From: a virus
IMG/VR virus record: IMGVR_UViG_3300014201_000005
Span: 1-42,236 of that record
Direction: 5' to 3' (one strand)
Length of the DNA: 42,236 nt
The notes below the pieces were generated by a model. The model was not told where the DNA came from, did no database searches, and saw only the letters and a list, made by a program, of their open reading frames with translations. Both the position numbers and the translations under genes were made by a program. Each line of letters opens with the position of its first letter. Within the stretch, counting starts at the first letter, position 1. Below, piece by piece: positions 142 through 42,236 of this stretch.

Positions 142-369
142 TTAATAACCAATGTTTTCGAATATACGCTTTATTTTATTCATAATTGCTAAAATAACAG
201 GGCTTAATAAACGCATCGTGATCCATATATACGCAAGAAGTGCCGATCCTATTAGAATAATAATCAACCAAGGGGGTAAAAAATTATTTGAGATTGCCCA
301 AGGTAAATTTAATCCATACATATATAATGTAAGCATGAGCCAAACAATAAATCTAATTAGGTTTTTCAT
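142..369 (-). CDS. Small membrane protein (75 aa, two predicted TM helices)
   Basis: Hydrophobic stretches FIVWLMLTLYMYGL and WLIIILIGSALLAYIWI. The ATG lies 17 nt inside the 3' end of the SPFH gene, suggesting coupling. The track start at 423 would overlap the SPFH gene deeply. Confidence 0.55.
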   Translation of the reverse strand: MKNLIRFIVWLMLTLYMYGLNLPWAISNNFLPPWLIIILIGSALLAYIWITMRLLSPVILAIMNKIKRIFENIGY

Positions 370-1177
370 TGCCGATATCCACGAAAGGTGTCGCGCTTCC
401 TGTAACTTTTGGCAAATGACCATCCCATCTTGTTACGCCTAAATATTGCACATACTCTGGCGTTAATGATGCCTCAATCATTTGATTAGCTTTTGCCTGC
501 GCTGCTGCTGTTACTAATAGCTTTTGTGCTTCTGCTTGCGCTAAAGCTACTTCATTCTCAGCACGCATTGCATTCTGGGTTGCTTGAATCTTTGAATTGA
601 TAGAATCAATTACCGTTTGTGGCAATCTAAACGTACCGATTAAATATACTTTATCAACGTCTATACCAGAATTTGCAGCTTGTGCTTTTACAAGATTATT
701 TACTTCTCCGATAAATTTCTCTTTTTGTAGTCCATATAATTCATCAATGGTCATGGTAGATGCAACTTGATTCATTGCATCACGCACCATATTACGCAGG
801 AATGTATTCGTAATCTCATCAACACCTAAACGATAATGCTGAAATACTTTTACAACATTATCCGGCTGTATTTGATAAGTAATACCAACATCGGTATTAA
901 TTGATAAACCTTCGGACGTCTGCATAGTAATCGATTCATCATTACCAATATCCTGATTATCATTAGAATTATCCATCCAAGTATAATTTTGCAGAAATGT
1001 AGGAAACAAATACATTTCGCTATTCCACCCTAGGTAGTATCTGCCAACGCCATAAAGCTGGTCAGATACCCCCTTATCAGAGCCATACAGATTAACCATA
1101 ACGCCTTGATAACCCGCTGGAACCTTTGTACATCCTGCTAATAGTAATGTTGCTAGTATTAATGATCTTCTATTCAT
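353..1177 (-). CDS. SPFH/band-7 (prohibitin/HflKC-like) lipoprotein
   Basis: [16 protein letters not shown] is a signal peptide plus lipobox. The body is SPFH-like with an Ala/Gln-rich coiled-coil tail ([25 protein letters not shown]). The start overlaps the csrA stop (ATGAATAG). Confidence 0.7.
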
Positions 1178-1403
1178 TTCCTGGTTCCTTAAATTCTTCT
1201 TCATCTTGATATAATGGATCTTTCTCCATTTTTGCTTCACGTTCTTTTTGAATCTTTTCGTAAATTTCTAGGCGATGAACTTCAACGTTTTGTGGTGCGG
1301 TTATGCCTATACGCACTTGGTTCCCCTTCACCCCAAGAACTACAGCCGTGATATCATCGCCGATGGTTAGCACCTCTCCGACGCGTCTGGTCAAAATAAG
1401 CAA
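1170..1403 (-). CDS. csrA: CsrA/RsmA-family RNA-binding translational regulator with acidic C-terminal tail
   Basis: [51 protein letters not shown] matches the CsrA signature. TTG start lies 8 nt after AAGGAG. Confidence 0.85.
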
Positions 1404-1457
1404 GATCAATACTCCTTTTTTAATTTATCCATACGACAAGGTCGTAATCCGTGTTTA

Positions 1458-2874: not shown

Positions 2875-3725
2875 TTCGTTTCTCCTTTAATTAATTTCTC
2901 TAAATAATCAATGCATTTTTGCACATCAACACCTTTCATGTCTGCAAAAGATTCTGCGTGCGCTTTGGCTAACCATTTATCTGTATCTTCTGTAGGTATT
3001 TTTAATAAATCAACTAATCTCGTAAGCTCTGCAACTTGTGCAGGATCTGCAAGTATTTCTGGCACAGCATCGCGCTCTAAAACATCTCTACCATAACGAT
3101 TAGCAATTTCATCATAGCAAAAAGGGAATACATCAAATTCATGAAAAGCTTCTAATCTGGATTTTTTTACAACACCAACACGCTTTTCACCACGTTTTTG
3201 TACTTCGAAGACTAAGTCAAAAAGATAATCCAGCTTTTTATAACAATCATAAGTTTCGCCAAGCTTAACGAGCTTATCACCGTATTCAGTTTTAGAATGC
3301 GAAGTAATAATAACGTTCATATCAAGACGCAATAATAAATTAAGTAATGATTTAATTTGGGTATTTGCATGCTGAACATGGCGACCGAATCCTGTGCCGA
3401 TGGCTTCATCCGCGCCAGCTATATCGATTAAATCATTATAGATAATAGTGAGCGGGTCAATAATCAATGTTTTATATTCATGCTGCTCAGTGAGTAATGA
3501 CAATACTTCTTGTTTTAATTCAGCAAAGTTTGACGTTTGAAATATGACACCGCCAGCTTTATTTAATAGCTCAACATATGATTTATTTTCAGCGCCTCGC
3601 TCTGTATCAATAAGATATGGCCTTGGGAACTGAATAGCTGCCGTTGTCTTGCCGGCGCCGCTTTGTCCATAAAATAATGCTTTTAATCTTTTCTCTACTA
3701 ATTCCGGTTTTTTAGCTCTCAACAT
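2871..3725 (-). CDS. Sak4-like RecA-fold ATPase (AAA_24 type, recombination/annealing)
   Basis: Walker A in LFYGQSGAGKTT. Walker B-like LIIDPL. About 280 aa, the typical phage Sak4 size and context. Confidence 0.7.
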   Translation of the reverse strand: MLRAKKPELVEKRLKALFYGQSGAGKTTAAIQFPRPYLIDTERGAENKSYVELLNKAGGVIFQTSNFAELKQEVLSLLTEQHEYKTLIIDPLTIIYNDLIDIAGADEAIGTGFGRHVQHANTQIKSLLNLLLRLDMNVIITSHSKTEYGDKLVKLGETYDCYKKLDYLFDLVFEVQKRGEKRVGVVKKSRLEAFHEFDVFPFCYDEIANRYGRDVLERDAVPEILADPAQVAELTRLVDLLKIPTEDTDKWLAKAHAESFADMKGVDVQKCIDYLEKLIKGETK

Positions 3726-3737
3726 TTGAGTTTCTCC

Positions 3738-3995
3738 TTAAATAGGCTCTTGTCTAAATTTCATTTTACTACCTTTTTCTCGATATAATCCGGTAATCTT
3801 ATCGGCATGTTTAGCGCACAAATGCTGTTTAAATTCCTCATCAAAAGGATTCTTGTCGTAACCTGACACTAAATAATCAGCCATATTACTGCACATTGCG
3901 CATACATGCTTACTAGACTTATGTCGCATACGTTCCTCCATATAATATTGATGCAGTTGTTCCTCTATAAAATTCCATTGCTGCATGTTACGCAT
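3738..3995 (-). CDS. Hypothetical Cys/His-containing protein; start uncertain (3995 or 3986)
   Basis: ORF. Candidate ATGs flank the stop of the upstream gene. Confidence 0.5.
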   Translation of the reverse strand: MRNMQQWNFIEEQLHQYYMEERMRHKSSKHVCAMCSNMADYLVSGYDKNPFDEEFKQHLCAKHADKITGLYREKGSKMKFRQEPI

Positions 3996-4188
3996 TGACA
4001 ATACTCCATCCAAACAAAGGTAGCGCAATCGATACTAATTGCAATAAACAAAAAATTACGCACATCCAATAAGCCCCGGCTAAATAAGCTGAATAAATTG
4101 CGGCAATAAATGCGACATTTAAGGCGAGCACCAGAAGGCTCATTATGAATATAAATAAATTATCTGCCGATAAAAATTTGCGCATCAT
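3988..4188 (-). CDS. Small membrane protein (66 aa)
   Basis: Two hydrophobic helices. ATGA-type overlap with the upstream gene. Confidence 0.5.
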   Translation of the reverse strand: MMRKFLSADNLFIFIMSLLVLALNVAFIAAIYSAYLAGAYWMCVIFCLLQLVSIALPLFGWSIVNA

Positions 4189-4400
4189 AAATCCCTCATC
4201 AATTGCGCCTGTGATTGCACAGTCTTTTGCGCAAGATTATATTCATGTTGTGCCTGCAATAATTGCTCATGCATTTTTGTTTCGTGTTGCTGCAATGATT
4301 TATATATCCTATATTGCTTATGCATTTCAGTGACGTGCAAACCTTTAACCTTATCCCTGATCCATACTTTGTAGCCTATTGCATAATCCCTCATAATCAT
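4185..4400 (-). CDS. Hypothetical protein (71 aa)
   Basis: ORF with 4-nt overlaps on both sides. Confidence 0.5.
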   Translation of the reverse strand: MIMRDYAIGYKVWIRDKVKGLHVTEMHKQYRIYKSLQQHETKMHEQLLQAQHEYNLAQKTVQSQAQLMRDL

Positions 4401-4606
4401 GACTGTTGCCCTCCTAGTAATTTCTCAATAATCTGTAAAGTTTGTATTTCCCTGTTGCGTGATTCAACTACGTGCTTAAATAATTCTTGATAATCTTTTT
4501 CGAGTAATGCAACTTTATTGGACAAGATACGAAGTTGTTCTTGCGTCGAAAAAGTATAAGATGGCTTTTCTATAATCATCTCGCCAGTATGTTCAGACTC
4601 AATCAT
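4397..4606 (-). CDS. Hypothetical coiled-coil protein (69 aa)
   Basis: ORF preceded by GGGGAG. Confidence 0.5.
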   Translation of the reverse strand: MIESEHTGEMIIEKPSYTFSTQEQLRILSNKVALLEKDYQELFKHVVESRNREIQTLQIIEKLLGGQQS

Positions 4607-4685
4607 TTTTATTTCTCCCCAAATAACAGCAATATAAGCGATAAAATTTTCTGAACTTGAGATTGCAAGTTAATGTGACACACTA

Positions 4686-5099
4686 TTATCCATTAGATTT
4701 CTCCAGTTCGCGTTTATCATCGCCAAGCTTTGCAGCGATATTTTCAGGTGTATTGAGTTCTTCGATTCGATCTTCTAAGTCAGATCGAATCTGAGTATCA
4801 TAGTAAGAAGTAACATTCTCTTCTAAATAAGTAAGGAGAAGAATTGACCATTGCTCTCTAAGATCTGGATTATCTGTGCGCATATATTCGCCGATACAGC
4901 GTAATAAATCTCGAGGATTAGGGAAGAAAAAAGGATCAAAATTTTCATCGTTAGGATTTTCGTCGATATCGATTAAGACTTGTAAACCAGCTAAAGTTGT
5001 AAGACGCTTTCTGAGAAGTTCTTCGCGCCATAAAGGTTCGTGCGTGTGCGCTAAATCGGCTATTTGTCCCTGATATTCTGATTTGTTACTCATATCCAT
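4686..5099 (-). CDS. Hypothetical acidic protein; start 5099 or 5093
   Basis: GGAAGGGAG lies upstream of the MDMSNK start. The track start at 5138 overlaps the upstream gene. Confidence 0.55.
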   Translation of the reverse strand: MDMSNKSEYQGQIADLAHTHEPLWREELLRKRLTTLAGLQVLIDIDENPNDENFDPFFFPNPRDLLRCIGEYMRTDNPDLREQWSILLLTYLEENVTSYYDTQIRSDLEDRIEELNTPENIAAKLGDDKRELEKSNG

Positions 5100-5115
5100 G
5101 TCTCCCTTCCAGTTG

Positions 5116-5322
5116 TTAGCTACGTAAAATATTCCCATTAGACACTATGCTAAGTTTTATAAAATTGTTATGGTATTTTTCCCAGTACAGGCGGGCATCT
5201 TCATAAGTGTCAAAGTCTTTTACGAATTTGCCCGAAACTGGTTTTGTAAAATATAAATCTGCAATAACGTACTTCTTTGTACTGCACTCTGCATTGTTAA
5301 GTGTAAAGTAAAACTTGTTCAT
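5116..5322 (-). CDS. First gene of the leftward early operon (68 aa)
   Basis: AAGGAG lies 7 nt upstream, about 35 nt downstream of the predicted leftward promoter. Confidence 0.55.
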   Translation of the reverse strand: MNKFYFTLNNAECSTKKYVIADLYFTKPVSGKFVKDFDTYEDARLYWEKYHNNFIKLSIVSNGNILRS

Positions 5323-5364
5323 CGTAGTACTCCTTGTGTTTTGAAAACTTCCAGTGTTGGGATA

Positions 5365-5393
5365 AATTTAGCACCGACACGGTGATATGTCAA
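5365..5393 (-). promoter_or_regulatory. Leftward early promoter with an operator in the spacer
   Basis: Minus strand reads TTGACA (5393..5388), 17 nt, TAAATT (5370..5365). The inverted repeat CACCG-ACA-CGGTG (5373..5385) sits in the spacer. Confidence 0.55.
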
Positions 5394-5409
5394 TAGCTAT
5401 TTTTTATCA

Positions 5410-5438
5410 TTGCAAATATATTTTTATTTGCCTATTGA
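5410..5438 (+). promoter_or_regulatory. Candidate rightward early promoter
   Basis: TTGCAA, 17 nt, TATTGA. The flanking inverted repeat is GCAAAT..ATTTGC. The -10 is weak. Confidence 0.3.
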
Positions 5439-5468
5439 CTACTAAACCTTATAGATCAAGGATTATAT

Positions 5469-5738
5469 ATGAAAGAAGCATTAGAACGAGCAATTACATT
5501 GGCAGGCAACGCGCATAGATTAGCTAGGCTGTGTGAGGTTGCGCCTCAGCAAATACCAAAATGGCTTAAGTCTGGCAAAACACCCGCGCATAGATGCATT
5601 CAAATAGAGCGCCTTCTAAAAGAAGCCATCACAAGATATGAGTTAAGACCTGATATATATCCACCTGAAGATTATAAGCGAAGGAGAAACCCGAAAATTG
5701 TTCTTATAGAGAAAGATAAAGAAGATATACCGTTATAA
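5469..5738 (+). CDS. Cro/YdaS-like helix-turn-helix regulator
   Basis: AITLAGNAHRLARLCEVAPQQIPKWLKSGKTPAHRCIQIERL matches the YdaS/Cro-type HTH pattern. It is the first gene of the rightward operon. Confidence 0.7.
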   Translation: MKEALERAITLAGNAHRLARLCEVAPQQIPKWLKSGKTPAHRCIQIERLLKEAITRYELRPDIYPPEDYKRRRNPKIVLIEKDKEDIPL

Positions 5739-5761
5739 GGTTACATATAAGGTAAGAAAAG

Positions 5762-5792
5762 TGCTCAAGTCTTCTCGCGTAAGACTTGAGCA
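5762..5792. terminator. 12-bp perfect hairpin, possibly a bidirectional terminator
   Basis: tgctcaagtctt / ctcgcgt / aagacttgagca. T-rich tracts follow on both strands but are not contiguous. Confidence 0.4.
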
Positions 5793-5820
5793 TTGCTTCA
5801 TTTTAGTTACGATAAGTCTC

Positions 5821-5975
5821 AAAAACATCACCGCAATGGTAACGCAATTGTAATACAGAAACTGCACCGCAATTGTAATGCAAAAACTGCACCTCAACGG
5901 TAACGCAACTGTAATACAAAAACAGCACCGCAACTTGTTACGGACTATCAGTTAAAACATCACCGCAACGGTACA
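5821..5975. repeat. Iteron array (putative replication origin)
   Basis: Five copies of AAAAC[AT][TG]CACC[GT]CAA start at 5826, 5862, 5887, 5923 and 5958. Nested GGTAACGCAA[CT]TGTAATAC sub-repeats. Each copy follows an A-tract. The array lies just upstream of the replication gene. Confidence 0.65.
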
Positions 5976-6058
5976 CAATATGACACTGCTGTAAGCCTTT
6001 GTCAATTGTTTACTTCTGCGGATTAATTAATTTTTTAATCTATTAAGGAAGTAAATTT

Positions 6059-6904
6059 ATGACTATGTCTTGGTGTCGCTTTTACGATACAGACCTTCAT
6101 GATCCTCGTATTCAATCAATGCCAGAAGCTATGCAGCGACGTTTCTTTATGCTTAGGCTACTTCATATAGACAATAAAATTGATCTCTATAATGATGATG
6201 ACATAGCTTTTGCTCTTCATATTACCCCTCAAGAAGCTGCCATCACTAAAGCACTTTTTCTTGAGAAAAAATTCATTACTCCTACATGGCGATTGATTGA
6301 ATGGGATAAGGAGCAATGCCCTTCTGATTCTTCCAAAGAAAGGATGAGAAAATTACGAGAAAAAAGGAAAAGTGACGGCACTGTTCGTCACATGTGCGCG
6401 AACAGTGCAAAAAGCGTGACGGATAGATCAGATCAGATCAGATCAGATCAGAACAGATCAGAGAAGATAAGAAGTACTACCGTAGCTGAGTCTGAAACAA
6501 GATTAAAAAACATTACTAACGTAGCAAGCAACGCGCGCGAAAACCCGCCGTCGCTTTTTAAAAATAATTTTATGATAGTTTTGGCAGAACTTTTCGGAGA
6601 CGGTGCTATCGCCCATCCTCACACAGCCCACAAAATTGCGACGATGTGTTCAGTCTGGGAAAGTGGGGGGGTGACCGATGAACATATTCGCGGGGGGTAT
6701 GCCAAAGCGCTTGAGCAAAAAGGTCGGGGATCGTTCGGGGCGTTGTATTTACAAAACATCGTTCTCGAAATTGCAAACCCTGTGCAGCCTAAAAAATCAA
6801 CAGGTGGTGGATGGCGCGGCCCGACTGACGCGGAAAAGGCGGAAAATCTAGCGTGGATGCATGAGGAGTTTGCAAGGATGAAAGAACGTGGGGAGGTTTC
6901 ATAA
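6059..6904 (+). CDS. Putative replication initiator/organiser (DUF1376/YdaU-like N-terminus)
   Basis: Position after the iterons. The N-terminus WCRFYDTDLHDPRIQSMPEAMQRRFFMLRLL resembles DUF1376-type phage replication proteins. It has a basic linker. Confidence 0.5.
   Translation: MTMSWCRFYDTDLHDPRIQSMPEAMQRRFFMLRLLHIDNKIDLYNDDDIAFALHITPQEAAITKALFLEKKFITPTWRLIEWDKEQCPSDSSKERMRKLREKRKSDGTVRHMCANSAKSVTDRSDQIRSDQNRSEKIRSTTVAESETRLKNITNVASNARENPPSLFKNNFMIVLAELFGDGAIAHPHTAHKIATMCSVWESGGVTDEHIRGGYAKALEQKGRGSFGALYLQNIVLEIANPVQPKKSTGGGWRGPTDAEKAENLAWMHEEFARMKERGEVS
6426..6459. repeat. GATCA pentanucleotide repeat (six GATC sites in 34 nt) inside the replication gene
   Basis: gatca x5, then gaaca, then gatca. 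It decays into gagaa gataa gaagt. It encodes DQIRSDQNRS. Confidence 0.9.
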
Positions 6905-7326
6905 TGCAACCAGGTGACTTTCTCAAATTTCAAGAGCACATGTATGTGCTGGGGCACACCTACAAAACTGACGGTGGCCAGATAGGAAAGATGTATTTTA
7001 AATCGTTGGTTAGACTCACAGTTGAGCAGGTTGAACAAGGTATTGTGCGCTGGCTACAAGACCCGAAAAAATGCGCATATTTACCAAAACCTGGCGACTT
7101 GCTGGCGTACTTTCCCGAGGATAAAACCACGCAAACACAGGTTCAAACTTGCGTAGAATGCAAGGAATTACCTAGTGAAATGACGAATGCCGGAAAGGCG
7201 TTGTGCATGGATTGCTACCACATTCATTTTTGGCGACCGAGGGCTGAGTACGAAATCCAGTTTCTCAACGCAAAATGTCGAGCGGTATGGGAAAAGCGCC
7301 TAAAAGATCGAATCCTACCCGGGTAA
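6904..7326 (+). CDS. Hypothetical protein with a CxxC...CxxC zinc motif
   Basis: CVECKE...CMDCYH. The ATG overlaps the upstream stop (ATAATG). Confidence 0.55.
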   Translation: MQPGDFLKFQEHMYVLGHTYKTDGGQIGKMYFKSLVRLTVEQVEQGIVRWLQDPKKCAYLPKPGDLLAYFPEDKTTQTQVQTCVECKELPSEMTNAGKALCMDCYHIHFWRPRAEYEIQFLNAKCRAVWEKRLKDRILPG

Positions 7327-7434
7327 AGTAGGGGGTACATTGAACGATCTATGAAAAGTAATACCATTACGGCGGGTAGAAAAAATAATCGCTTCACGGG
7401 CTTTAAAATCGGTTTTACAACTAAGGGGGTTTGG

Positions 7435-7725
7435 ATGAACAAGCAGCAAAATTTGAGTGAGCTGGATGCCAGGATTCACGAAGAAGATATTCAACGCATG
7501 GCGGTAAAAGTTTACAAAGAAATGAAAAAAGAAATGGCAAAATATAAATTACGGGTCGATTACTTTTCCGCCTACTCGTTGGCACACTTGCACACAATCT
7601 TGCTCGTACTGGCTGCTAACGAGATGGAGACATTCGCTAAGTCGCCTAACCTGTCGATGGAAATTATAGGCTATGTGAAGCGATTTATCGAGAAGCAGGA
7701 GGAGAAGTTTGCAACTAAACACTAA
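7435..7725 (+). CDS. Hypothetical protein (96 aa)
   Basis: GGGGG lies upstream of the MNKQQN start. The longer track ORF lacks an SD. Confidence 0.5.
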   Translation: MNKQQNLSELDARIHEEDIQRMAVKVYKEMKKEMAKYKLRVDYFSAYSLAHLHTILLVLAANEMETFAKSPNLSMEIIGYVKRFIEKQEEKFATKH

Positions 7726-7773
7726 CCATTTTGTTGACGCCAACAAAATGACCATATTGCCGAGGTCGGAAAA

Positions 7774-8175
7774 ATGATGAGGCTGGTAGCTAGCGAAGCT
7801 CAAGAACAGATTGCCTTAATGAAATGGGCTTGCCTTACCAAGCTGTCTGGGATGTCCATAGGCACATATTTGTTCCACATCCCTAATCAGGGCAAGCGAT
7901 CCAAAATGGGCGGTCACCAGCTCGTTCGGATGGGGCTTAAAGCGGGTGTGCCAGATCTGTTTCTGGCTTATCCGAAATGGCATACCTACTTGCTGGGCTA
8001 CCCAGGCATGTTTATCGAGATGAAACGCCGTAACCTCAAAAACACTCCCGATGGTGGTTTAATGCCTGAGCAAAAAGACATGCTAAACCTACTTGATTCT
8101 GTGGGGTACAAGTGTATAGTTGCCTACGGTTGGGAAGAGGCAAGAGACGCAATTTTGGAGTATTTGAGTGTCTGA
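7774..8175 (+). CDS. VRR-NUC domain nuclease
   Basis: HIPNQGKRS...GVPDLFLAYP...MFIEMKR...PEQKDMLNLLDSVGYKCIVAYGWEEA fits the VRR-NUC PD-(D/E)xK pattern. Confidence 0.75.
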   Translation: MMRLVASEAQEQIALMKWACLTKLSGMSIGTYLFHIPNQGKRSKMGGHQLVRMGLKAGVPDLFLAYPKWHTYLLGYPGMFIEMKRRNLKNTPDGGLMPEQKDMLNLLDSVGYKCIVAYGWEEARDAILEYLSV

Positions 8176-8383
8176 TAATTTCACCCCTATAAGACGAACT
8201 AAATTAAACGATGCTTTAGTGCATAACCTCGAACAATTAATCCGCGAAGGTGTTAAACGAATTGGATTAAAACCATCACAATTTCAATTACTGCATGATT
8301 CGATATGTGATGCGTTAAAAGTACATCACAAAACAGAAATTCCTTTCGAGGGCGCAATTATTTATAAACTGGAGCCAAGATAA
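8168..8383 (+). CDS. Hypothetical protein (71 aa, GTG start)
   Basis: ORF overlapping both neighbouring genes. Confidence 0.45.
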   Translation: MSDNFTPIRRTKLNDALVHNLEQLIREGVKRIGLKPSQFQLLHDSICDALKVHHKTEIPFEGAIIYKLEPR

Positions 8384-9222
8384 TGCCGATATATATTAAT
8401 AAAACATTGATACCCGAGATTAGATTTCCTGGTGGAGAATGTCATATAGCGCTTGACAATATTCTTCAATATGAACTTGATGGCTATACAAAAGTTTATG
8501 GAAAGTGCACGTGTAAAGCATTTCTTTACAATTCCGATGACATTATGCGCTTGTTGTTAACTATCGATGCTATTCGCCGTATAAGCCCAAAAATTCGTAT
8601 AAAACTTGAAATTCCTTATTTTCCATACGCAAGACAAGATCGGGTTTGTAATTATGGGGAAGCCTTAAGTATTAGGGTCATGGCTGATTTAATTAATGGT
8701 TTGAATTGTGAGAGTGTCCTAATTCATGATCCACATTCAGACGTGGTGGGTGCATTGGTGAATAACTGCCGTATCGAGCCTATTCATAATATTATTAGAT
8801 TCACTTCATTAGGTAAGTTTATCAAAGATCGTAATTATGATTTAGTTTCACCAGATGCAGGGGCAGAAAAGAAAGTACGCACAACAGCTTCAATTCTTGG
8901 TAGAGGCGCATATTATGCATATAAATCACGCAATACACTTACTGGCGAAATAACTTCAGTTCGATTCGACGATGATGTCTTAGGCAAGAACTTATTAATC
9001 GTTGATGATATCTGCGATGGTGGCAGAACATTTATTCAATTGGCCGATAGATTAATGCATAACGGTGCAGTAAATGTTTGCCTATATATTACACACGGTA
9101 TTTTCTCAAAAGGGTTAGCTATATTACGCCCACATTTAAGTCATATTTATTGCTATCATACATTTTTGCCTTATTGCGATTTTGATCGAGATTTTCTAAC
9201 CATATTAAGCAAGGAAAATTAA
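8383..9222 (+). CDS. Ribose-phosphate pyrophosphokinase-like enzyme (Prs family); candidate ADPR-pyrophosphate synthetase (Adps) of NARP1
   Basis: Prs motifs PYFPYARQDR and LLIVDDICDGGRT. At 279 aa it is shorter than housekeeping Prs. It abuts the NAMPT-like gene. Confidence 0.75.
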   Translation: MPIYINKTLIPEIRFPGGECHIALDNILQYELDGYTKVYGKCTCKAFLYNSDDIMRLLLTIDAIRRISPKIRIKLEIPYFPYARQDRVCNYGEALSIRVMADLINGLNCESVLIHDPHSDVVGALVNNCRIEPIHNIIRFTSLGKFIKDRNYDLVSPDAGAEKKVRTTASILGRGAYYAYKSRNTLTGEITSVRFDDDVLGKNLLIVDDICDGGRTFIQLADRLMHNGAVNVCLYITHGIFSKGLAILRPHLSHIYCYHTFLPYCDFDRDFLTILSKEN

Positions 9223-10707
9223 ATGTATATTAATCCATTAACCGCAATTGATTTCTACAAAACCGATCATCGTAGACAATATCCAGAAGGTACAACTGAG
9301 GTTTATTCAAATTTTACAGCGCGTAGCAGCAGAATGGGAGGAGTTAAGGAAGTAGTATTTTTTGGATTGCAATATTTTATTAGTGATTTTTTAATTAATA
9401 CTTGGCGTGAATCATTTTTTGAGATCCGCAAACGATATGTATTAGAAGATTATAAACGTCGTATGGACAATGCTTTAGGTAAAGACAGTATTAATATCGA
9501 TCATATCGCAGCACTGCATGATTTAGGTTATTTACCTTTAAGAATTAAAGCTCTACCAGAAGGTACGCTCGTACCAATTGGCGTACCAATGTTAACAGTC
9601 GTTAATACCCATCCAGATTTTTTCTGGTTAACTAATTATATCGAAACAATTATGTCGTGTTATCTGTGGAAGCCCATAACCTCCGCAACGATTGCTTTTG
9701 AATATAAAAAACTATTAACTAATTACGCGAAGACAACTTGTATAGATAAAGATTTTATTAAATATCAAGCGCACGATTTCTCTTTTCGCGGTATGTCATC
9801 ACCACAAGATGCAGCAATTTCCGGTGCGGGTCATTTATTATCGTTTGTAGGCACTGACACAGTGTTAGCAATTGATTTACTCGAAGATTATTATTTTGCA
9901 AATGCTGAGAAAGAATTAATCGGTTGCTCAGTACCCGCAACTGAGCACTCATGTATGTCAATGGGAACAGAGAATAATGAGCTATATACATTTAGGCGAT
10001 TAATCACTGAACTATACCCGACAGGGATTATATCTATCGTATCTGACACTTGGGATTTCTGGCATGTCATTAACATGTATTTGCCCATGCTTAGACCCGA
10101 TATCATGGCTCGCAATGGCAAAGTCGTAATTCGCCCAGATAGCGGCGCTCCGGTAAAGATTATTTGCGGGGATTTACTTGCGCCAAAAGATTCATCCCAA
10201 TACAAGGGCGCTGTCGAATGTCTCTGGGATATCTTCGGGGGCACAATAAATTCAAGGGGCTTTAAAGAACTAGATCCACATATCGGCCTAATCTACGGTG
10301 ACTCAATTACTCTCAATCGCGCCAGTATGATTTTAGAGCAATTAGAGGCTAAAGGCTTTGCCTCTAACAACATTGTCTTTGGTGTTGGCTCATATACCTA
10401 CGAATACGTCACTAGAGACACGTTCGGCTTTGCTATGAAGGCAACTAGTGGGGTCGTAAATGGCGAGCGTAGGGATATCTTTAAATCCCCTAAAACAGAT
10501 GACGGCGAGAAAACATCTGCTAAAGGATTGTTGCGCGTTAAGCGTATTGAGAATAAATTACTTCTCGAACAACAAACCGATGAAGTTTCGGAAGCTGGCG
10601 GAGAATTGCGCACCGTTTTTATGGACGGTCAATTGGTTAGAAAAACTAACCTGCAAGAAATTCGCGAACGTCTTGATAATGAATTACGAGGTAAATGTTA
10701 TGGCTGA
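9223..10707 (+). CDS. Nicotinamide phosphoribosyltransferase-like enzyme (NadV/NAMPT family); candidate Namat of NARP1
   Basis: 494 aa with NAMPT-type motifs (FRGMSS, GVGSYTYEYVTRDTFGFAMKAT). It starts 1 nt after the Prs-like stop. Confidence 0.8.
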   Translation: MYINPLTAIDFYKTDHRRQYPEGTTEVYSNFTARSSRMGGVKEVVFFGLQYFISDFLINTWRESFFEIRKRYVLEDYKRRMDNALGKDSINIDHIAALHDLGYLPLRIKALPEGTLVPIGVPMLTVVNTHPDFFWLTNYIETIMSCYLWKPITSATIAFEYKKLLTNYAKTTCIDKDFIKYQAHDFSFRGMSSPQDAAISGAGHLLSFVGTDTVLAIDLLEDYYFANAEKELIGCSVPATEHSCMSMGTENNELYTFRRLITELYPTGIISIVSDTWDFWHVINMYLPMLRPDIMARNGKVVIRPDSGAPVKIICGDLLAPKDSSQYKGAVECLWDIFGGTINSRGFKELDPHIGLIYGDSITLNRASMILEQLEAKGFASNNIVFGVGSYTYEYVTRDTFGFAMKATSGVVNGERRDIFKSPKTDDGEKTSAKGLLRVKRIENKLLLEQQTDEVSEAGGELRTVFMDGQLVRKTNLQEIRERLDNELRGKCYG

Positions 10708-10894
10708 GAAGTGGACACAAAAACTTGATATCAAAAAAGGCGCTCTTCGCGCTAAAGCAAAGAAAGCTGGTGGTATGAATAAAGAAGGTAAAATCAAAGA
10801 ATCATTTATCGATAAAGAAGAACATTCGAAAAATCCGCGCACTAAAAAACAAGCTGTGCTAGCCAAGACATTTGCAAAGATGAGGAAGAAATAA
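10700..10894 (+). CDS. Small lysine-rich protein (64 aa)
   Basis: The ATG overlaps the end of the NAMPT-like gene. MAEKWTQKLDIKKGALRAKAKKAGG. Confidence 0.45.
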   Translation: MAEKWTQKLDIKKGALRAKAKKAGGMNKEGKIKESFIDKEEHSKNPRTKKQAVLAKTFAKMRKK

Positions 10895-11035
10895 ATGGCT
10901 GCTAAAAAATGCGTAACTGAGAAAGAATTCTCTAAATACAAGAAGGAAGACAAAAAGGATGATAAGAAAATGGCTGAAAAAGTTGTGCGAAAAAATGCGC
11001 ATACAAAAAGAAAGCGTACCGGTAAATATTCTTAA
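10895..11035 (+). CDS. Possible small lysine-rich protein (46 aa)
   Basis: TAAATG junction with the upstream ORF. Below the track threshold. Conflicts with the 5' end of 10959..11405. Confidence 0.3.
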   Translation: MAAKKCVTEKEFSKYKKEDKKDDKKMAEKVVRKNAHTKRKRTGKYS

Positions 11036-11405
11036 CCAACAAGAGCAACAGGCCGACCAGGCTTATCATGATTATTTAACAGGTAAGAGACAGCTTGGGA
11101 ATATTTTGATAGATAACCAAAGCGGCGGCGTAAATGTCTTCCAAAGCAATACTTATGGGCATAATGCCGTTACTATGGCGGCATTAATGCAACAAGACTC
11201 GCAAGCTGCTAGAAATGTATATGTGGAGGGCATGCTAAATACTGTTGTATGCCCCTCTCTTCGAAATTCTACATTGGTAAATGTAACTTCTGGAGAGAGT
11301 AATACTTTTATAGGTACAAAATACCCTGAACCACCTAAAGATTATGTCGATGGCGAATTTGAAGTAGTTGAACCACTTGTGGCTAGTATTGATCTGGATA
11401 AATAG
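10959..11405 (+). CDS. Hypothetical protein; start uncertain (10959 or 10995)
   Basis: Long ORF with no recognisable motifs. Confidence 0.45.
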   Translation: MIRKWLKKLCEKMRIQKESVPVNILNQQEQQADQAYHDYLTGKRQLGNILIDNQSGGVNVFQSNTYGHNAVTMAALMQQDSQAARNVYVEGMLNTVVCPSLRNSTLVNVTSGESNTFIGTKYPEPPKDYVDGEFEVVEPLVASIDLDK

Positions 11406-11408
11406 TGA

Positions 11409-11633
11409 ATGTCATCACACAAATACAAATGCCCTAATTGCGGCGCGCCTATGTGGAAACATGGCACATTATTCTACAAAACTATCAATAAAACATTCGT
11501 CCGCTATAAATGTTCAAATTGTGAGTGCAAAGCTACCTATAATGAAATTGCCTTGGATAGATTTTCCGGAACAACTCAATATTGTGAACATTGTAAACAA
11601 CCTATTCTGGCGACTCGCGTGCTGAAGTATTAA
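11409..11633 (+). CDS. Zinc-ribbon protein (74 aa)
   Basis: CPNC...CSNC...CEHC motifs. Last gene of the rightward early operon. Confidence 0.55.
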   Translation: MSSHKYKCPNCGAPMWKHGTLFYKTINKTFVRYKCSNCECKATYNEIALDRFSGTTQYCEHCKQPILATRVLKY

Positions 11634-13289: not shown

Positions 13290-13729
13290 TCATTCAGATA
13301 CATTATCCATCGTACACCCATATTCGGTATTTTCTCCTGACGCAATTTCAAACATATACAATGGGGTGGTGCAGGTAAATCAAAATAATCAAAAAACCCT
13401 GTCATCTGAAATATCCCATTATTTGCCGAATATTTTGAAATTTTAACCGAATAAGTAATATACTCTTCTAAGAACTCAAAAATAATCGCATTATTTTTTT
13501 TGGAGTAGTGTGGCAATACATAATTGTAAGGATGCCCCAGATCTTTATTTAACAGTTCAGTAATTCCCTTATTCATCGCAAATACTATTCCTTTACTGTT
13601 TTTCACACGATACACCGTCATCATAGGTGCTTTGTGTCGCTTATTTAACGCCATGCTCACTTTTAGATCTGACCAGTCACTCGTTTCTACATCATCATAA
13701 ACTCGTGCTCGTACTGTGCTGCCTTTCAT
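13280..13729 (-). CDS. Hypothetical protein (149 aa) directly downstream of Ro60
   Basis: AAGGAG lies 7 nt before the MKGSTVRARV start. It overlaps the Ro60 3' end by 35 nt. Confidence 0.55.
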   Translation of the reverse strand: MKGSTVRARVYDDVETSDWSDLKVSMALNKRHKAPMMTVYRVKNSKGIVFAMNKGITELLNKDLGHPYNYVLPHYSKKNNAIIFEFLEEYITYSVKISKYSANNGIFQMTGFFDYFDLPAPPHCICLKLRQEKIPNMGVRWIMYLNEAK

Positions 13730-15182
13730 TTTTAATCTCCTTCTGCTCATTAATTAACCAATCAACAACTGAACTAGAAAACCCGTCAATATGGGTAAAC
13801 TGTCCATAACCAACACCATTACGCGCACTAGCCACGTTAATGATATATCCTTTCGTTCCAGGCAATACCGATCCAATACCATCGGATGATTGCTCGTCAG
13901 TAATTACAATTAATGTGTCGTACATACCCGCACCAGCGCCAATAACTATTTTATTTAAGTGAGCGATAGCTTTAGCTAATTCAGTGCTGGCATGCCTCTG
14001 ACTATTTACAATAGCATCACGCAAAGCAAAACCTTTGCGTGGTGGAACGGCAACAAACCCCGACGAAAATGTCCAGGTAAATGGAACCTCAATAGTTAAT
14101 TCACGGATCAATATAGCAACCGCACATGCAGCGTCTAATCGTGTCATATCTGATTTACTAGATAGTCTCTCATCCATAGAACCAGAGACATCGATTAATA
14201 ATGCTATTTTTCCTTGCAACTTTGGCATTTTCTCAACACATCGTGCCATCATCGTCTCAAGCATCGGTTCACATTGCGGAACTGCCTTTGCCGCTGCAAT
14301 AAATTGATATGGCAACATCCTGTCGACTTTGCAAATGGTGGAATAAGACCTAATCTCAGAAATAGAGACTCTAGCTTCTACCATGTTTCTTAAATTACGC
14401 AAAAAGGCGATTGTTCCTAGCTTATTTTCTAACATTAAGCTCGTGAATACTTCGTGCTTATCTTTACCTGCCGACAAAGCAACTTCCCATGTGTCAGGAG
14501 TGGTTAGCGTGCGATCAACTATTTTTTTGTAAAGTAATTCATTAGGCGTGAAAACTTGCGTAGCATCTTGCTCTAAATTAATTAATTTTAACAAACGTCT
14601 CTCTGCTTTAGTAAAGATAGGCGCATCTTTGCCCTTATCTTTTGGCTTTGAATGCGATAAAAATAATGCATCACGTAATTTAACTTGATTATCTCTGTCG
14701 TATTTAGCAAATTGATACTCATTAAACTTACGAAACGCAAATGCTAAGCCTTTTTTAACTTGGTGCGATAATGTGCGCTTTTTAGTTTTTCCAGACATTT
14801 TATTTTCGATATTTGTAGACCAATACAACGCCAAAAAATCCGTAATCTGATCAGGGCGCGTAATTATCCTAGACAATGTCTTAGCTACAAATTTTTTATG
14901 GCTAGCATATCGCGCCATTTCACGCACAATTAATAATGGTGCATGCCTCAAATTCGCACGTTCACTGGCATCTATGGCAAGTTGCACACACTGGGCAGGC
15001 TCAACCAAGGGTACAAGCTTTGCGATGCGTGCGCCTATCTCCTCGCCGTCCTCGTAGAACTCTTTCTCAAACAACATGCAGCTCATTACTGATCTGCGCA
15101 ATTGTAAATATGGGGATATGGTGCAAGCGTTGCCACCTTCGTGGGTTTTTAAGCCGCCAGAGGCTTGATTTAATCGTGTCAT
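13695..15182 (-). CDS. rsr: Ro60/Rsr orthologue (TROVE domain plus vWA domain)
   Basis: The N-terminal region is typical of bacterial TROVE proteins (HEGGNA...FEKEFYEDGEE). The C-terminal vWA has the MIDAS motif LLIDVSGSMDE. Y-RNA-like elements lie immediately upstream. Confidence 0.8.
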   Translation of the reverse strand: MTRLNQASGGLKTHEGGNACTISPYLQLRRSVMSCMLFEKEFYEDGEEIGARIAKLVPLVEPAQCVQLAIDASERANLRHAPLLIVREMARYASHKKFVAKTLSRIITRPDQITDFLALYWSTNIENKMSGKTKKRTLSHQVKKGLAFAFRKFNEYQFAKYDRDNQVKLRDALFLSHSKPKDKGKDAPIFTKAERRLLKLINLEQDATQVFTPNELLYKKIVDRTLTTPDTWEVALSAGKDKHEVFTSLMLENKLGTIAFLRNLRNMVEARVSISEIRSYSTICKVDRMLPYQFIAAAKAVPQCEPMLETMMARCVEKMPKLQGKIALLIDVSGSMDERLSSKSDMTRLDAACAVAILIRELTIEVPFTWTFSSGFVAVPPRKGFALRDAIVNSQRHASTELAKAIAHLNKIVIGAGAGMYDTLIVITDEQSSDGIGSVLPGTKGYIINVASARNGVGYGQFTHIDGFSSSVVDWLINEQKEIKNERQHSTSTSL

Positions 15183-15361: not shown

Positions 15362-15484
15362 CTGGAACAAACGAGGAAAGTGTTTAGCGCTCTACCCGCT
15401 GAGCTACGGCGTAATTTCTACACCGGACGGACTCGAACCGCCGACCTCTTCATTACAAGTGAAGTAACTTTCCTCTACGCCAGA
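15362..15484 (-). ncRNA. Y-RNA-like module 1 with a tRNA-like domain (YrlA-type)
   Basis: The closing stem is CUGG/CCAG plus a perfect 9-bp helix GAGGAAAGU/ACUUUCCUC. It encloses a T arm (GGCGG-UUCGAGU-CCGUC), a capped acceptor hairpin (CGGUGUA-GAAAU-UACGCCG), a D arm (GCUC-AGCGGGUA-GAGC) and an anticodon-like hairpin (CUUCA-CUUGUAA-UGAAG). Confidence 0.7.
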
Positions 15485-15491
15485 CTATTTT

Positions 15492-16643: not shown

Positions 16644-16758
16644 ATTTAGTCCCAAAGGCTCACTAGGCAAAGGATGGGCGAGACCAATAAAACAAAATAA
16701 AATCGCTGAACAATTATTACGAAAGCAGTTGCATAAAATGTGGAATTTAATTAAATGA
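16633..16758 (+). CDS. Possible small basic protein (41 aa)
   Basis: It overlaps both neighbours (ATGA at its 3' end). Below the track threshold. Confidence 0.3.
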   Translation: MRNKFSPKGSLGKGWARPIKQNKIAEQLLRKQLHKMWNLIK

Positions 16759-16976
16759 CTGATACAATCTGGTCGACTGAGTTGTTTAAACATCGCAAAT
16801 TGAATGCTGAAGGTCATCAAAGAGTGTACGAATATATAATATTAGCCGAAACGATGTTGGAATTGATTCATGAGAATAAACCATCGCGCGATTTATCCTT
16901 AGCATTAACAAAACTAGAAGAAAGCGTAATGTGGTTTACGAAAGGTATTTCCGATATTAAGGAATTTCAGGAATAA
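16755..16976 (+). CDS. Hypothetical protein (73 aa)
   Basis: ORF upstream of terS. Confidence 0.5.
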   Translation: MTDTIWSTELFKHRKLNAEGHQRVYEYIILAETMLELIHENKPSRDLSLALTKLEESVMWFTKGISDIKEFQE

Positions 16977-22226: not shown

Positions 22227-22311
22227 TGGTGGGTAGGGTAGGATTCGAACCTACGAACCCAGAGGGAAAAGATTTACAGTCTCCGCGCTTTAACCGCTTG
22301 CATACCTACCC
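22227..22311 (-). tRNA. tRNA-Tyr (anticodon GTA), class II, CCA encoded
   Basis: Acceptor GGGTAGG/CCTACCC. 3-bp D stem. Anticodon arm GGAGA-CTGTAAA-TCTTT. 13-nt variable arm. T arm GTAGG-TTCGAAT-CCTAC. ACCA at the 3' end. Confidence 0.9.
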
Positions 22312-41811: not shown

Positions 41812-42236
41812 GATCGCATCCTTTAGGTTTAAAATCGGCATAATATTCTTCACCTGCTCTTGTAAAAAGACATCCTAATCTTTTTAAAATAGACTCTTTA
41901 TAGGATAACAACATATCTTTAGGCAGGTCGTTACTGTCAATCGCGTGAACGTACAGAATCGTGCCAAAAAATAGTAGCGCAGCTATATCGCGATTTTTAA
42001 TACCTCCATTTTTTTCTAAAAATTTGTGAATTACTTTATCTATATGAGGAACAAGTTTTCGTCCATATTTAAAAAGCATATTTTTCTGCGCTTCTTCATC
42101 TGGGCTTTCCTCCATATCCTCCTCGTGAACGTTCCAAGCATTATTTTTCGCCTCTTCTGCTCTCTTTTTAGCGATAGTAACCTCTAACATATCCTTAAAT
42201 GAATTAAGCAAACCAATTAGTTCTTCTTTCCCACTC
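41801..42236 (-). CDS. Hypothetical protein, truncated at the window edge (true start wraps to 125..123)
   Basis: The ORF continues through the terminal repeat. The SD and ATG are visible only in the left copy. Confidence 0.55.
   Translation of the reverse strand, partial: SGKEELIGLLNSFKDMLEVTIAKKRAEEAKNNAWNVHEEDMEESPDEEAQKNMLFKYGRKLVPHIDKVIHKFLEKNGGIKNRDIAALLFFGTILYVHAIDSNDLPKDMLLSYKESILKRLGCLFTRAGEEYYADFKPKGCDHEQ
42114..42236. repeat. Terminal direct repeat, right copy
   Basis: Identical to 1..123. Confidence 0.95.

Follow-up and report, generated by a model that had tools for sequence, protein, structure and literature searches.

NAD+ reconstitution pathway 1 (NARP1) is a two-gene phage pathway of which the enzymes, Adps and Namat, have been characterized biochemically and structurally. 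The Adps protein of phage SPbetaL1 uses ATP to turn ADP-ribose (ADPR) into ADPR-pyrophosphate (ADPR-PP), with no product in a control reaction for which the legend of Fig. 2D gives ribose-5-phosphate as the substrate, and Namat joins ADPR-PP, which it prefers over phosphoribosyl pyrophosphate (PRPP), to nicotinamide to form nicotinamide adenine dinucleotide (NAD+) (Osterman et al., 10.1101/2024.02.11.579819). According to the same study, deletion of NARP1 renders phage Bas63 sensitive to SIR2-HerA and phage FADO sensitive to DSR2, knock-in of NARP1 saves SBSphiJ from Thoeris, and a Namat gene is located near 97% of the members of the Adps clade. This paper describes a pair of adjacent genes, designated adps (gene 1) and namat (gene 2), in a viral DNA stretch of 42,236 nucleotides (IMG/VR record IMGVR_UViG_3300014201_000005, positions 1 to 42,236; the window), which very probably constitutes a functional NARP1 module on the basis of its sequence. 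The NARP1 reading had been proposed in a preliminary description of the locus and is supported by trees in which both proteins cluster with characterized Adps and Namat enzymes and not with housekeeping PRPP synthetase (Prs) or true nicotinamide phosphoribosyltransferase (Nampt), as well as by an active-site comparison, performed by sequence alignment, that located the published specificity determinants in both proteins.

Adps enzymes are recognized by their catalytic lysine in a hairpin (K185 in ICP1, K162 in SPbetaL1), by allosteric sites that have degenerated, by the lack of the alpha11-alpha12 filament module at the C-terminus, and by a PP loop and donor site that are remodelled in a way conserved across Adps (Cys215-Ser220 in ICP1, with Phe221 as a lid) (Liu et al., PMC13586617). 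The PP loop of gene 1, DDICDGGRTF, is exactly that of the Felix-O1/Bas63-type Adps, whereas canonical Prs reads DDM(I/V)DT(G/A)GTL, and its hairpin, YKSRNTLTGEI, carries a lysine that aligns with ICP1 K185 and displays the K-x-R-(D/N)-x-x-TG-x-I pattern common to all Adps compared, as opposed to DKRRPRAN in canonical Prs. Moreover, gene 1 has DPHSDV where Prs has DLHAEQ, and it conserves the equivalents of ICP1 F18, R87, H121, D161, K185, D212, D213, D216, and F221, although F18 and R87, which contact the adenine of ADPR, are conserved in canonical Prs too. The RF loop is shorter and devoid of the RRxRS basic run, the N-terminal helix is absent, approximately 16 N-terminal residues are deleted, and the C-terminus, which lacks the alpha11-alpha12 module, ends approximately 20 residues short of that of canonical Prs (279 versus 315 amino acids). 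The comparison of Adps proteins was made by sequence only, with the Felix-O1-like phage allfine as a proxy for the Bas63 family.

Gene 1 matched Pribosyltran_N with 45 bits and phrog_619 with 256 bits, and among the Prs models it scored above the cutoff only of the broad TIGR01251 (138.7 bits, cutoff 113), on which proven or syntenic Adps reach 98-119 bits and E. coli Prs 423 bits. The thresholds of the Prs equivalog and subfamily models were not reached (NF002320, 117 versus 297 bits; NF002095, 111 versus 296 bits), and the best Prs match in the PDB scored 77 bits. Amino-acid identity amounted to 34% with ICP1 Adps, 34% with the Felix-O1-like, 30% with the SPbetaL1, and 26.5% with the FADO enzyme. 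In a neighbour-joining tree (25 sequences, 270 columns) with three proteobacterial class I Prs as the outgroup, the Adps side was split from these canonical enzymes with 100% bootstrap support and gene 1 was nested among the characterized Adps-side members. Its motifs and position in the tree place gene 1 in the Adps branch of the PRPP-synthetase fold.

Namat combines a Nampt-like core with an adenine 'selectivity clamp' helix (SCH) and an SCL loop; the SCH motif is GSX-Phi1-X-Phi2-X-Phi3-TRD, in which X is aromatic, and the SCL loop donates a stacking Arg, Lys or Tyr at its third position, which is Arg40 in SPbetaL1 (Lan et al., PMC12774641). The gene 2 protein contains the SCH sequence GSYTYEYVTRD, with Tyr at positions 3, 5, and 7, and its SCL sequence, ARSSRMGGV, aligns with PRTSRVEDI of SPbetaL1 such that an Arg occupies the Arg40 column. 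In place of the clamp, five Nampts (KVP40 NadV, three other phage Nampts, and the Xanthomonas enzyme) have GG(G/A/Q)LLQxxxRD, and they have Gly where gene 2 has the Namat-type Ser190 and Ser391. The catalytic core is identical in the alignment, including F189, R192, D215, R306, D308, the catalytic His, D13', and Y15'.

Among PDB entries, gene 2 scored 578 bits with SPbetaL1 Namat (9w5x/9w5w) and 500 bits with a second Namat-side entry (9ke8), as compared to 253 and 236 bits with the human and Xanthomonas Nampt structures, respectively, while the reciprocal control, KVP40 NadV, scored 401 and 359 bits with Nampts versus 240 with Namat. Identity was 55% with SPbetaL1, 52% with FADO, 50% with ICP1, and 46.5% with the Felix-O1-like Namat, with a range of 42-71% across the Namat side, and 31-33% with the Nampts. 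A neighbour-joining tree (28 sequences, 487 columns, 200 replicates) rooted on the five Nampts separated these from the Namat side with 100% bootstrap support and nested gene 2 among the characterized Namat-side members; by its clamp, scores, and position in the tree, gene 2 is a member of the Namat branch within the Nampt fold. Family models were also matched by gene 2 (NAPRTase, 145 bits; NAMPT_N, 40 bits; NF006629, 588 bits; phrog_448, 670 bits), but NF006629 was rejected as a discriminator between Namat and Nampt, with KVP40 NadV (508 bits) and the Nampt of Cronobacter phage leB (460 bits) both above its cutoff of 405.

The occurrence of adjacent Prs-like and Nampt-like genes for proteins of 279 and 494 amino acids, as described previously, was borne out (Table 1), and the peptides PYFPYARQDR and LLIVDDICDGGRT were located in the product of the first open reading frame (ORF). 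The gap of 1 nt claimed earlier was corrected to 0 nt, as the TAA stop codon (9220-9222) is directly followed by the ATG (9223-9225), ahead of which a Shine-Dalgarno-like AAGGAA motif is found at 9211-9216. In view of this abutting junction, the genes are predicted to be co-transcribed, with probable translational coupling, and adps in turn overlaps the preceding ORF by 1 nt (TAATG, 8381-8385). The order adps-namat with a 0-nt gap is that of SPbetaL1, FADO, ICP1, and the Felix-O1-like phages. The two genes are also paired in L015, a sister phage, in podovirus MW202524 (42.6 kb), and in all characterized NARP1 phages that were retrieved, and an Adps-type gene lies within 4 kb of the gene 2 homologue at 63 of the 80 bacterial loci that are described below; the pairing of adps and namat is not due to chance.

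Besides gene order and abutting genes, the pair shares with SPbetaL1 NARP1 the type of SCH, the SCL Arg, and the core of Namat, as well as the truncations and the catalytic lysine of Adps. However, the Adps proteins are only 30% identical and the PP loop of SPbetaL1 reads DDLSSFGGT, whereas gene 1 has the Gram-negative-type DDICDGGRT; moreover, SPbetaL1 is a 134-kb SPbeta-like phage, unrelated in host and phage type to the approximately 42-kb podovirus studied here. The Felix-O1-like Adps has a PP loop identical to that of gene 1 and the ICP1 loop, DDICDGAASF, is close to it, and both enzymes share the DPHSDV motif. Differences are an insertion of approximately 100 residues in the Felix-O1-like Namat that is not in gene 2, and Phe92 of ICP1 Adps, which is replaced by Cys in gene 1. 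As a separate observation on ICP1, the Namat homology in isolate 2017_Dha_AB (L005, 2501-3958) begins approximately 140 nt before the annotated start at 2639, with a long ORF from 2579, and the N-terminus of this protein appears to be frameshifted or mis-annotated.

By analogy with the homologues of SPbetaL1, Bas63, FADO, and ICP1, Adps would take the beta-gamma pyrophosphate from ATP and attach it to the terminal ribose of ADPR, and Namat would swap this pyrophosphate for nicotinamide, yielding NAD+ directly without a nicotinamide mononucleotide (NMN) intermediate or an NMN adenylyltransferase (NMNAT). Since the substrates are both products of the TIR, SIR2, and SEFIR NADase effectors, the module is expected to act only when host immunity cleaves NAD+, and it could enable replication of the podovirus in hosts with Thoeris, DSR, SIR2-HerA, and similar systems. 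That the pair performs this reconstitution of NAD+ from ADPR is likely by homology, and counter-defence as its selected role is probable with somewhat less confidence. Since the pair has its closest relatives in prs-nadV-nrtR clusters on bacterial chromosomes, the term 'anti-defence' is derived from the phage context, as the sequence family alone does not imply that role. The position of the pair in a presumably early rightward operon and a co-resident gene of the Acb2/Tad1 family would fit an anti-defence role. The latter gene encodes a hairpin-domain protein of 73 amino acids (PF24729, 39.4 bits, cutoff 27), is situated directly upstream of the small terminase gene, and is kept in the sister phage. 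Its product may act as a sponge that captures immune signals of the cyclic-nucleotide or gcADPR kind, which makes it a second anti-defence candidate, and its presence would be in keeping with pressure on the phage by TIR or nucleotide-signalling immunity.

In a search of 5.8 billion proteins, the closest relatives of the pair were bacterial chromosomal genes and not phage genes (66-71% identity for the Namat-like and 50-56% for the Adps-like proteins), located on contigs of megabase size from Geminocystis, Cyanobacterium, Coxiellaceae, Arcobacter, and others; for example, Geminocystis NIES-3709 has the gene order prs-like, nadV-like, NrtR. A survey of one genome per species yielded more than 572 loci, the best 80 of which were examined (L024-L103; 59-71% identity; from Rickettsiales to Bacteroidota). 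The Namat-type SCH motif was present in all but one of these (79/80), NrtR was nearby in 60, and an NMNAT homologue in 21, while the identity of the Adps-like proteins in the survey ranged from 32 to 54%. NrtR-controlled prs-nadV operons that are derepressed by ADPR were described in Shewanella, Acinetobacter ADP1, Chromobacterium, and Cytophaga, with the dedicated prs paralogue left unexplained (Rodionov et al. 2008, PMC2330246); the present analysis adds Geminocystis, Coxiellaceae, Rickettsiales, Chitinophaga, and others. These operons contain the sequences closest to the phage pair, in the same order and with the Namat-type SCH and Adps-type PP loop, but they are chromosomal and lie beside NrtR and sometimes NMNAT, whereas the phage copy has neither gene, nor an operator of the Bacteroidota type. 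A further difference is that they have historically been read as PRPP synthetase plus Nampt, and that the ADPR-PP chemistry of this subclade is putative. Bacterial copies of NARP1 were mentioned by Osterman et al. (10.1101/2024.02.11.579819) and Lan et al. (PMC12774641), and in the literature searched no paper ties NrtR regulation to NARP1 chemistry.

A 21-bp palindrome, TTTGCGTAAAATTTACGCAAA, which has the GT-N7-AC core described for NrtR operators, precedes the Adps-type genes by 31-113 nt at 11 Bacteroidota loci (L044, L046, L050, L053, L059, L064, L071, L092, L095, L100, and L102; median score 33), and this would fit control by ADPR of a NARP1-like operon in bacteria. Retention of such an operator by the phage pair, which would make it ADPR-inducible through a host regulator, was rejected for the Bacteroidota-type operator only, the best match in the window scoring 15 at a lax threshold at which approximately 2.5 chance hits are expected. 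The pair was probably exchanged with bacteria, in which the same subclade sits beside the ADPR-sensing repressor NrtR. The GC content of the two genes (0.355 and 0.393) and their GC content at third codon positions are within the range of the other phage genes and composition lends no support to a recent transfer. The broader proposal that the NrtR-linked bacterial operons encode Adps and Namat, and that the chemistry of NARP1 forms an old housekeeping circuit, widespread among bacteria, which phages captured without its regulator and did not invent, stands at even odds. If true, ADPR would both derepress the operon via NrtR and be the substrate that is consumed, the 'phage-specific' framing of NARP1 would be overturned, and hundreds of bacterial 'Prs/NadV' genes would have to be re-annotated.

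The record 'Acinetobacter phage MD-2021a' (L007, CAKLQF020000015.1), which gave the best match within the phage collection, was rejected as a phage, the contig being a bacterial chromosome with fepC, AraC, and TauE neighbours. Its cluster at 3093-6310 consists of prs-like, nadV-like, and nrtR genes, the last of which, annotated as a 'bifunctional NMNAT/ADPR pyrophosphatase', encodes NrtR (255 amino acids; NUDIX plus NrtR_WHD, 78 bits). A prs-nadV-NMNAT cluster in a phage would have favoured classical salvage, and this reading was discarded because the contig is bacterial and the third gene is NrtR.

The affinity to bacterial operons raises the alternative that the pair, with the same chemistry, serves general NAD+ homeostasis during infection, as an auxiliary metabolic module from the bacterial NrtR regulon that recycles ADPR from the normal turnover of NAD+. 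In both trees the window and its sister phage nest inside the bacterial subclade (100% and 95% bootstrap support), which is widespread beside NrtR, and housekeeping roles for bacterial NARP1 are allowed for by Osterman et al. (10.1101/2024.02.11.579819). However, the NARP1 phenotype was specific to defence in every phage tested (Bas63, FADO, and the SPbetaL1 knock-in), NARP1 did not raise NAD+ in the absence of a depleting system (Osterman et al.), and ADPR is in short supply as long as no NADase is triggered. The presence of the Acb2/Tad1 gene and the absence from the window of a Bacteroidota-type NrtR box also argue against this alternative, and a purely homeostatic role is considered unlikely.

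In the case of classical salvage, gene 1 would encode a PRPP synthetase dedicated to this pathway and gene 2 would be a Nampt proper, which convert ribose-5-phosphate and nicotinamide into NMN, and a host NMNAT (NadR, NadM, or NadD via PncC) would complete NAD+, in a NARP2-like pathway with a borrowed last step. This is the reading of both proteins at the level of annotation and the classical one for bacterial prs-nadV operons (PMC2330246), and Namat enzymes can form NMN from PRPP in vitro (PMC12774641). On the other hand, gene 2 has the adenine clamp instead of the GGxLLQ-type sequence present in all five Nampts, and its identity to true Nampts is below the range found across the Namat side. 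Likewise, gene 1 has a remodelled donor site and is devoid of the regulatory and filament modules of Prs, and the control reaction of SPbetaL1 Adps with, per the legend, ribose-5-phosphate was negative. Furthermore, a true Nampt in phages is accompanied by its own NMNAT in 94% of cases and never by Adps (Osterman et al., 10.1101/2024.02.11.579819). In NARP2 of phage KVP40 (NadV plus NatV), NAD+ is also rebuilt in phage-infected cells by means of an enzyme of the Nampt fold, but KVP40 NadV, which as a true Nampt carries GGGLLQQLDRD and no clamp, shares 33% identity with gene 2, depends on a phage NMNAT, and has no Adps partner. Taken together, classical salvage is a quite improbable explanation of the pair.

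The claim that the genome encodes no NMNAT was upheld by sequence searches across the complete genome. With the NMNAT-type cytidyltransferase of phiN3 and a C-terminal portion of the NMNAT from Synechococcus phage B3 as queries, tblastn and phmmer --max searches of all six frames gave a best E-value of 0.06, and no cytidylyltransferase, PnuC, or NadR domains were found among the listed Pfam calls, which had been precomputed for genes throughout the genome, the tables being those of near-identical contigs of the same phage, with the segment at approximately 41-42 kb present only on a variant contig. The further argument that this absence favours NARP1 is retained with less weight: the absence itself points in that direction, but as a stand-alone argument it is weak because a phage could pass NMN to the NMNAT of its host, and it is the motifs and the phylogeny that carry the assignment. 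Among the other reconstitution pathways, NARP2 does not match, with no NMNAT detected and a Nampt-fold protein that is not of the KVP40 type, nor does NARP3 (PnuC plus NadR), neither family being in the listed Pfam calls.

Several observations weigh against the assignment of the pair to NARP1. Its ADPR/NAD+ chemistry is extrapolated from homologues, and the nearest relatives are bacterial genes that were traditionally interpreted as the Prs and NadV of salvage pathway II, with an NMNAT homologue near 21 of the 80 related loci. The identity of gene 1 to characterized Adps is low, and it is also 23-26% identical to the Prs of E. coli, Legionella, and Burkholderia, for which reason it was assigned by its motifs and its place in the tree. 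Moreover, the Cys of gene 1 takes the place of an adenine contact of ICP1 Adps, at a site that varies or is gapped in other proven Adps. The trees are neighbour-joining trees of 25-28 sequences and not maximum-likelihood trees, and the Prs outgroup comprises only three proteobacterial enzymes. Finally, because Namat enzymes still make NMN from PRPP in vitro (PMC12774641), gene 2 may produce NMN as well.

The two genes have been maintained by selection. Relative to the sister phage, which has approximately 89% DNA identity to the window and keeps the pair at the same place, the ratio of non-synonymous to synonymous substitution rates (dN/dS) was 0.25 for adps and 0.13 for namat, as compared to 0.15 for the terminase, and both genes are under purifying selection. 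Both proteins are 100% identical on metagenomic contigs of approximately 42 kb (JGI 3300014169, JGI 3300042090, and Logan SRR6183735), and identical copies of the pair occur on contigs from at least 3 of the 7 samples found. A reading of the pair as decaying or non-functional passengers, for which nothing specific speaks and which could at most point to the faster divergence of Adps than of its neighbours (with the sister phage, Adps shares 70% of its amino acids and Namat 88%), is effectively refuted by these conservation data, including the intact frames and the conservation of all catalytic residues.

With NARP1 present in approximately 4% of sequenced phages, its presence in this phage is unsurprising, and the pair is a routine addition to a known system, of which the affinity to bacterial NrtR-regulon pairs is modestly interesting. 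The labels 'PRPP synthetase' and 'nicotinate phosphoribosyltransferase' are misleading here and can be replaced by a specific prediction of counter-defence, and the pair suggests the existence of NAD+-depleting immunity in the host lineage. The residue rules published in 2026 (SCH and SCL for Namat; PP loop and truncations for Adps) apply directly to metagenomic phages. In addition, the Namat/Adps-type pairs beside NrtR bear on the origin of NARP1 and on the annotation of thousands of bacterial genes.

The ends of the window are an exact direct repeat of 123 nt, and a contig that was assembled from a different sample spans the end-to-start junction, which shows the window to be a complete genome, assembled as a circle, with a unique length of 42,113 bp. 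The repeat represents an assembly overlap, the genome being circular or terminally redundant. Among the encoded proteins are a portal of the P22 type, a small terminase, a lysozyme, and a 'phage stabilisation' protein, and the source is an uncultured podovirus-like phage of the P22-portal type. Between the large terminase and those of deposited or cultured phages, identity does not exceed 33%, and a megablast search of deposited phages with the pair gave no match, by which the phage is considered novel at the DNA level.

The pair is part of a rightward block that also contains small unknown ORFs and for which early expression is predicted (Table 1). Genes from 6059 to 10894 are on the same strand and overlap or are at most approximately 50 nt apart, and wider gaps in the block are found only after the helix-turn-helix gene (5738 to 6059) and before 10959. 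A single strong terminator-like hairpin was found upstream of the pair.

Table 1. Features of the window, with the basis of each assignment.
Feature	Position	Strand	Basis
adps, Prs-like, 279 aa; predicted ADP-ribose pyrophosphokinase (ADPR-PP synthetase)	8383-9222	+	motifs, tree, TIGR01251
namat, Nampt-like, 494 aa; predicted nicotinamide ADPR-transferase	9223-10707	+	PDB scores, SCH/SCL motifs, tree
adps-namat junction: AAGGAA motif, stop, start	9211-9225	+	read from sequence
Rightward early-type block holding the pair	5469-11633	+	PHROG and Pfam calls
Cro/repressor-like helix-turn-helix	5469-5738	+	PHROG/Pfam
Replication initiator-like	6059-6904	+	PHROG/Pfam
VRR-NUC nuclease	7774-8175	+	PHROG/Pfam
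Terminator-like hairpin	5760-5794		
Acb2/Tad1 hairpin-domain protein	16755-16976	+	PF24729
CsrA-like and Band_7/SPFH genes	353-1409	-	PF02599, PF01145
TROVE-domain protein	13695-15182	-	48.9 bits
YrlA (Y-RNA-like) match	15371-15474	-	32.6 bits
tRNA-Thr(tgt) call	15418-15487	-	ARAGORN
tRNA-Tyr(gta)	22227-22311	-	Rfam, ARAGORN
Terminal direct repeat, 123 nt	1-123 and 42114-42236		

Elsewhere in the window, a leftward block includes a CsrA-like gene (79 amino acids) that adjoins a Band_7/SPFH gene (274 amino acids), and a phage-encoded CsrA homologue might point to the host lineage or to post-transcriptional takeover. A tRNA-Tyr(gta) gene on the minus strand (Rfam tRNA, 48.8 bits, in agreement with ARAGORN) is located within the plus-strand structural block. 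Finally, the window encodes a TROVE-domain (Ro60/Rsr-like) protein of 495 amino acids, just upstream of which, on the same strand, a match to YrlA is found (E = 6e-5; score under the gathering score of 69) that overlaps the tRNA-Thr(tgt) called by ARAGORN, for which the Rfam tRNA score of 28.3 is just under the threshold of 29. The TROVE gene and the Y-RNA-like match look like a phage-borne module of Ro60 and a tRNA-mimic Y-RNA.

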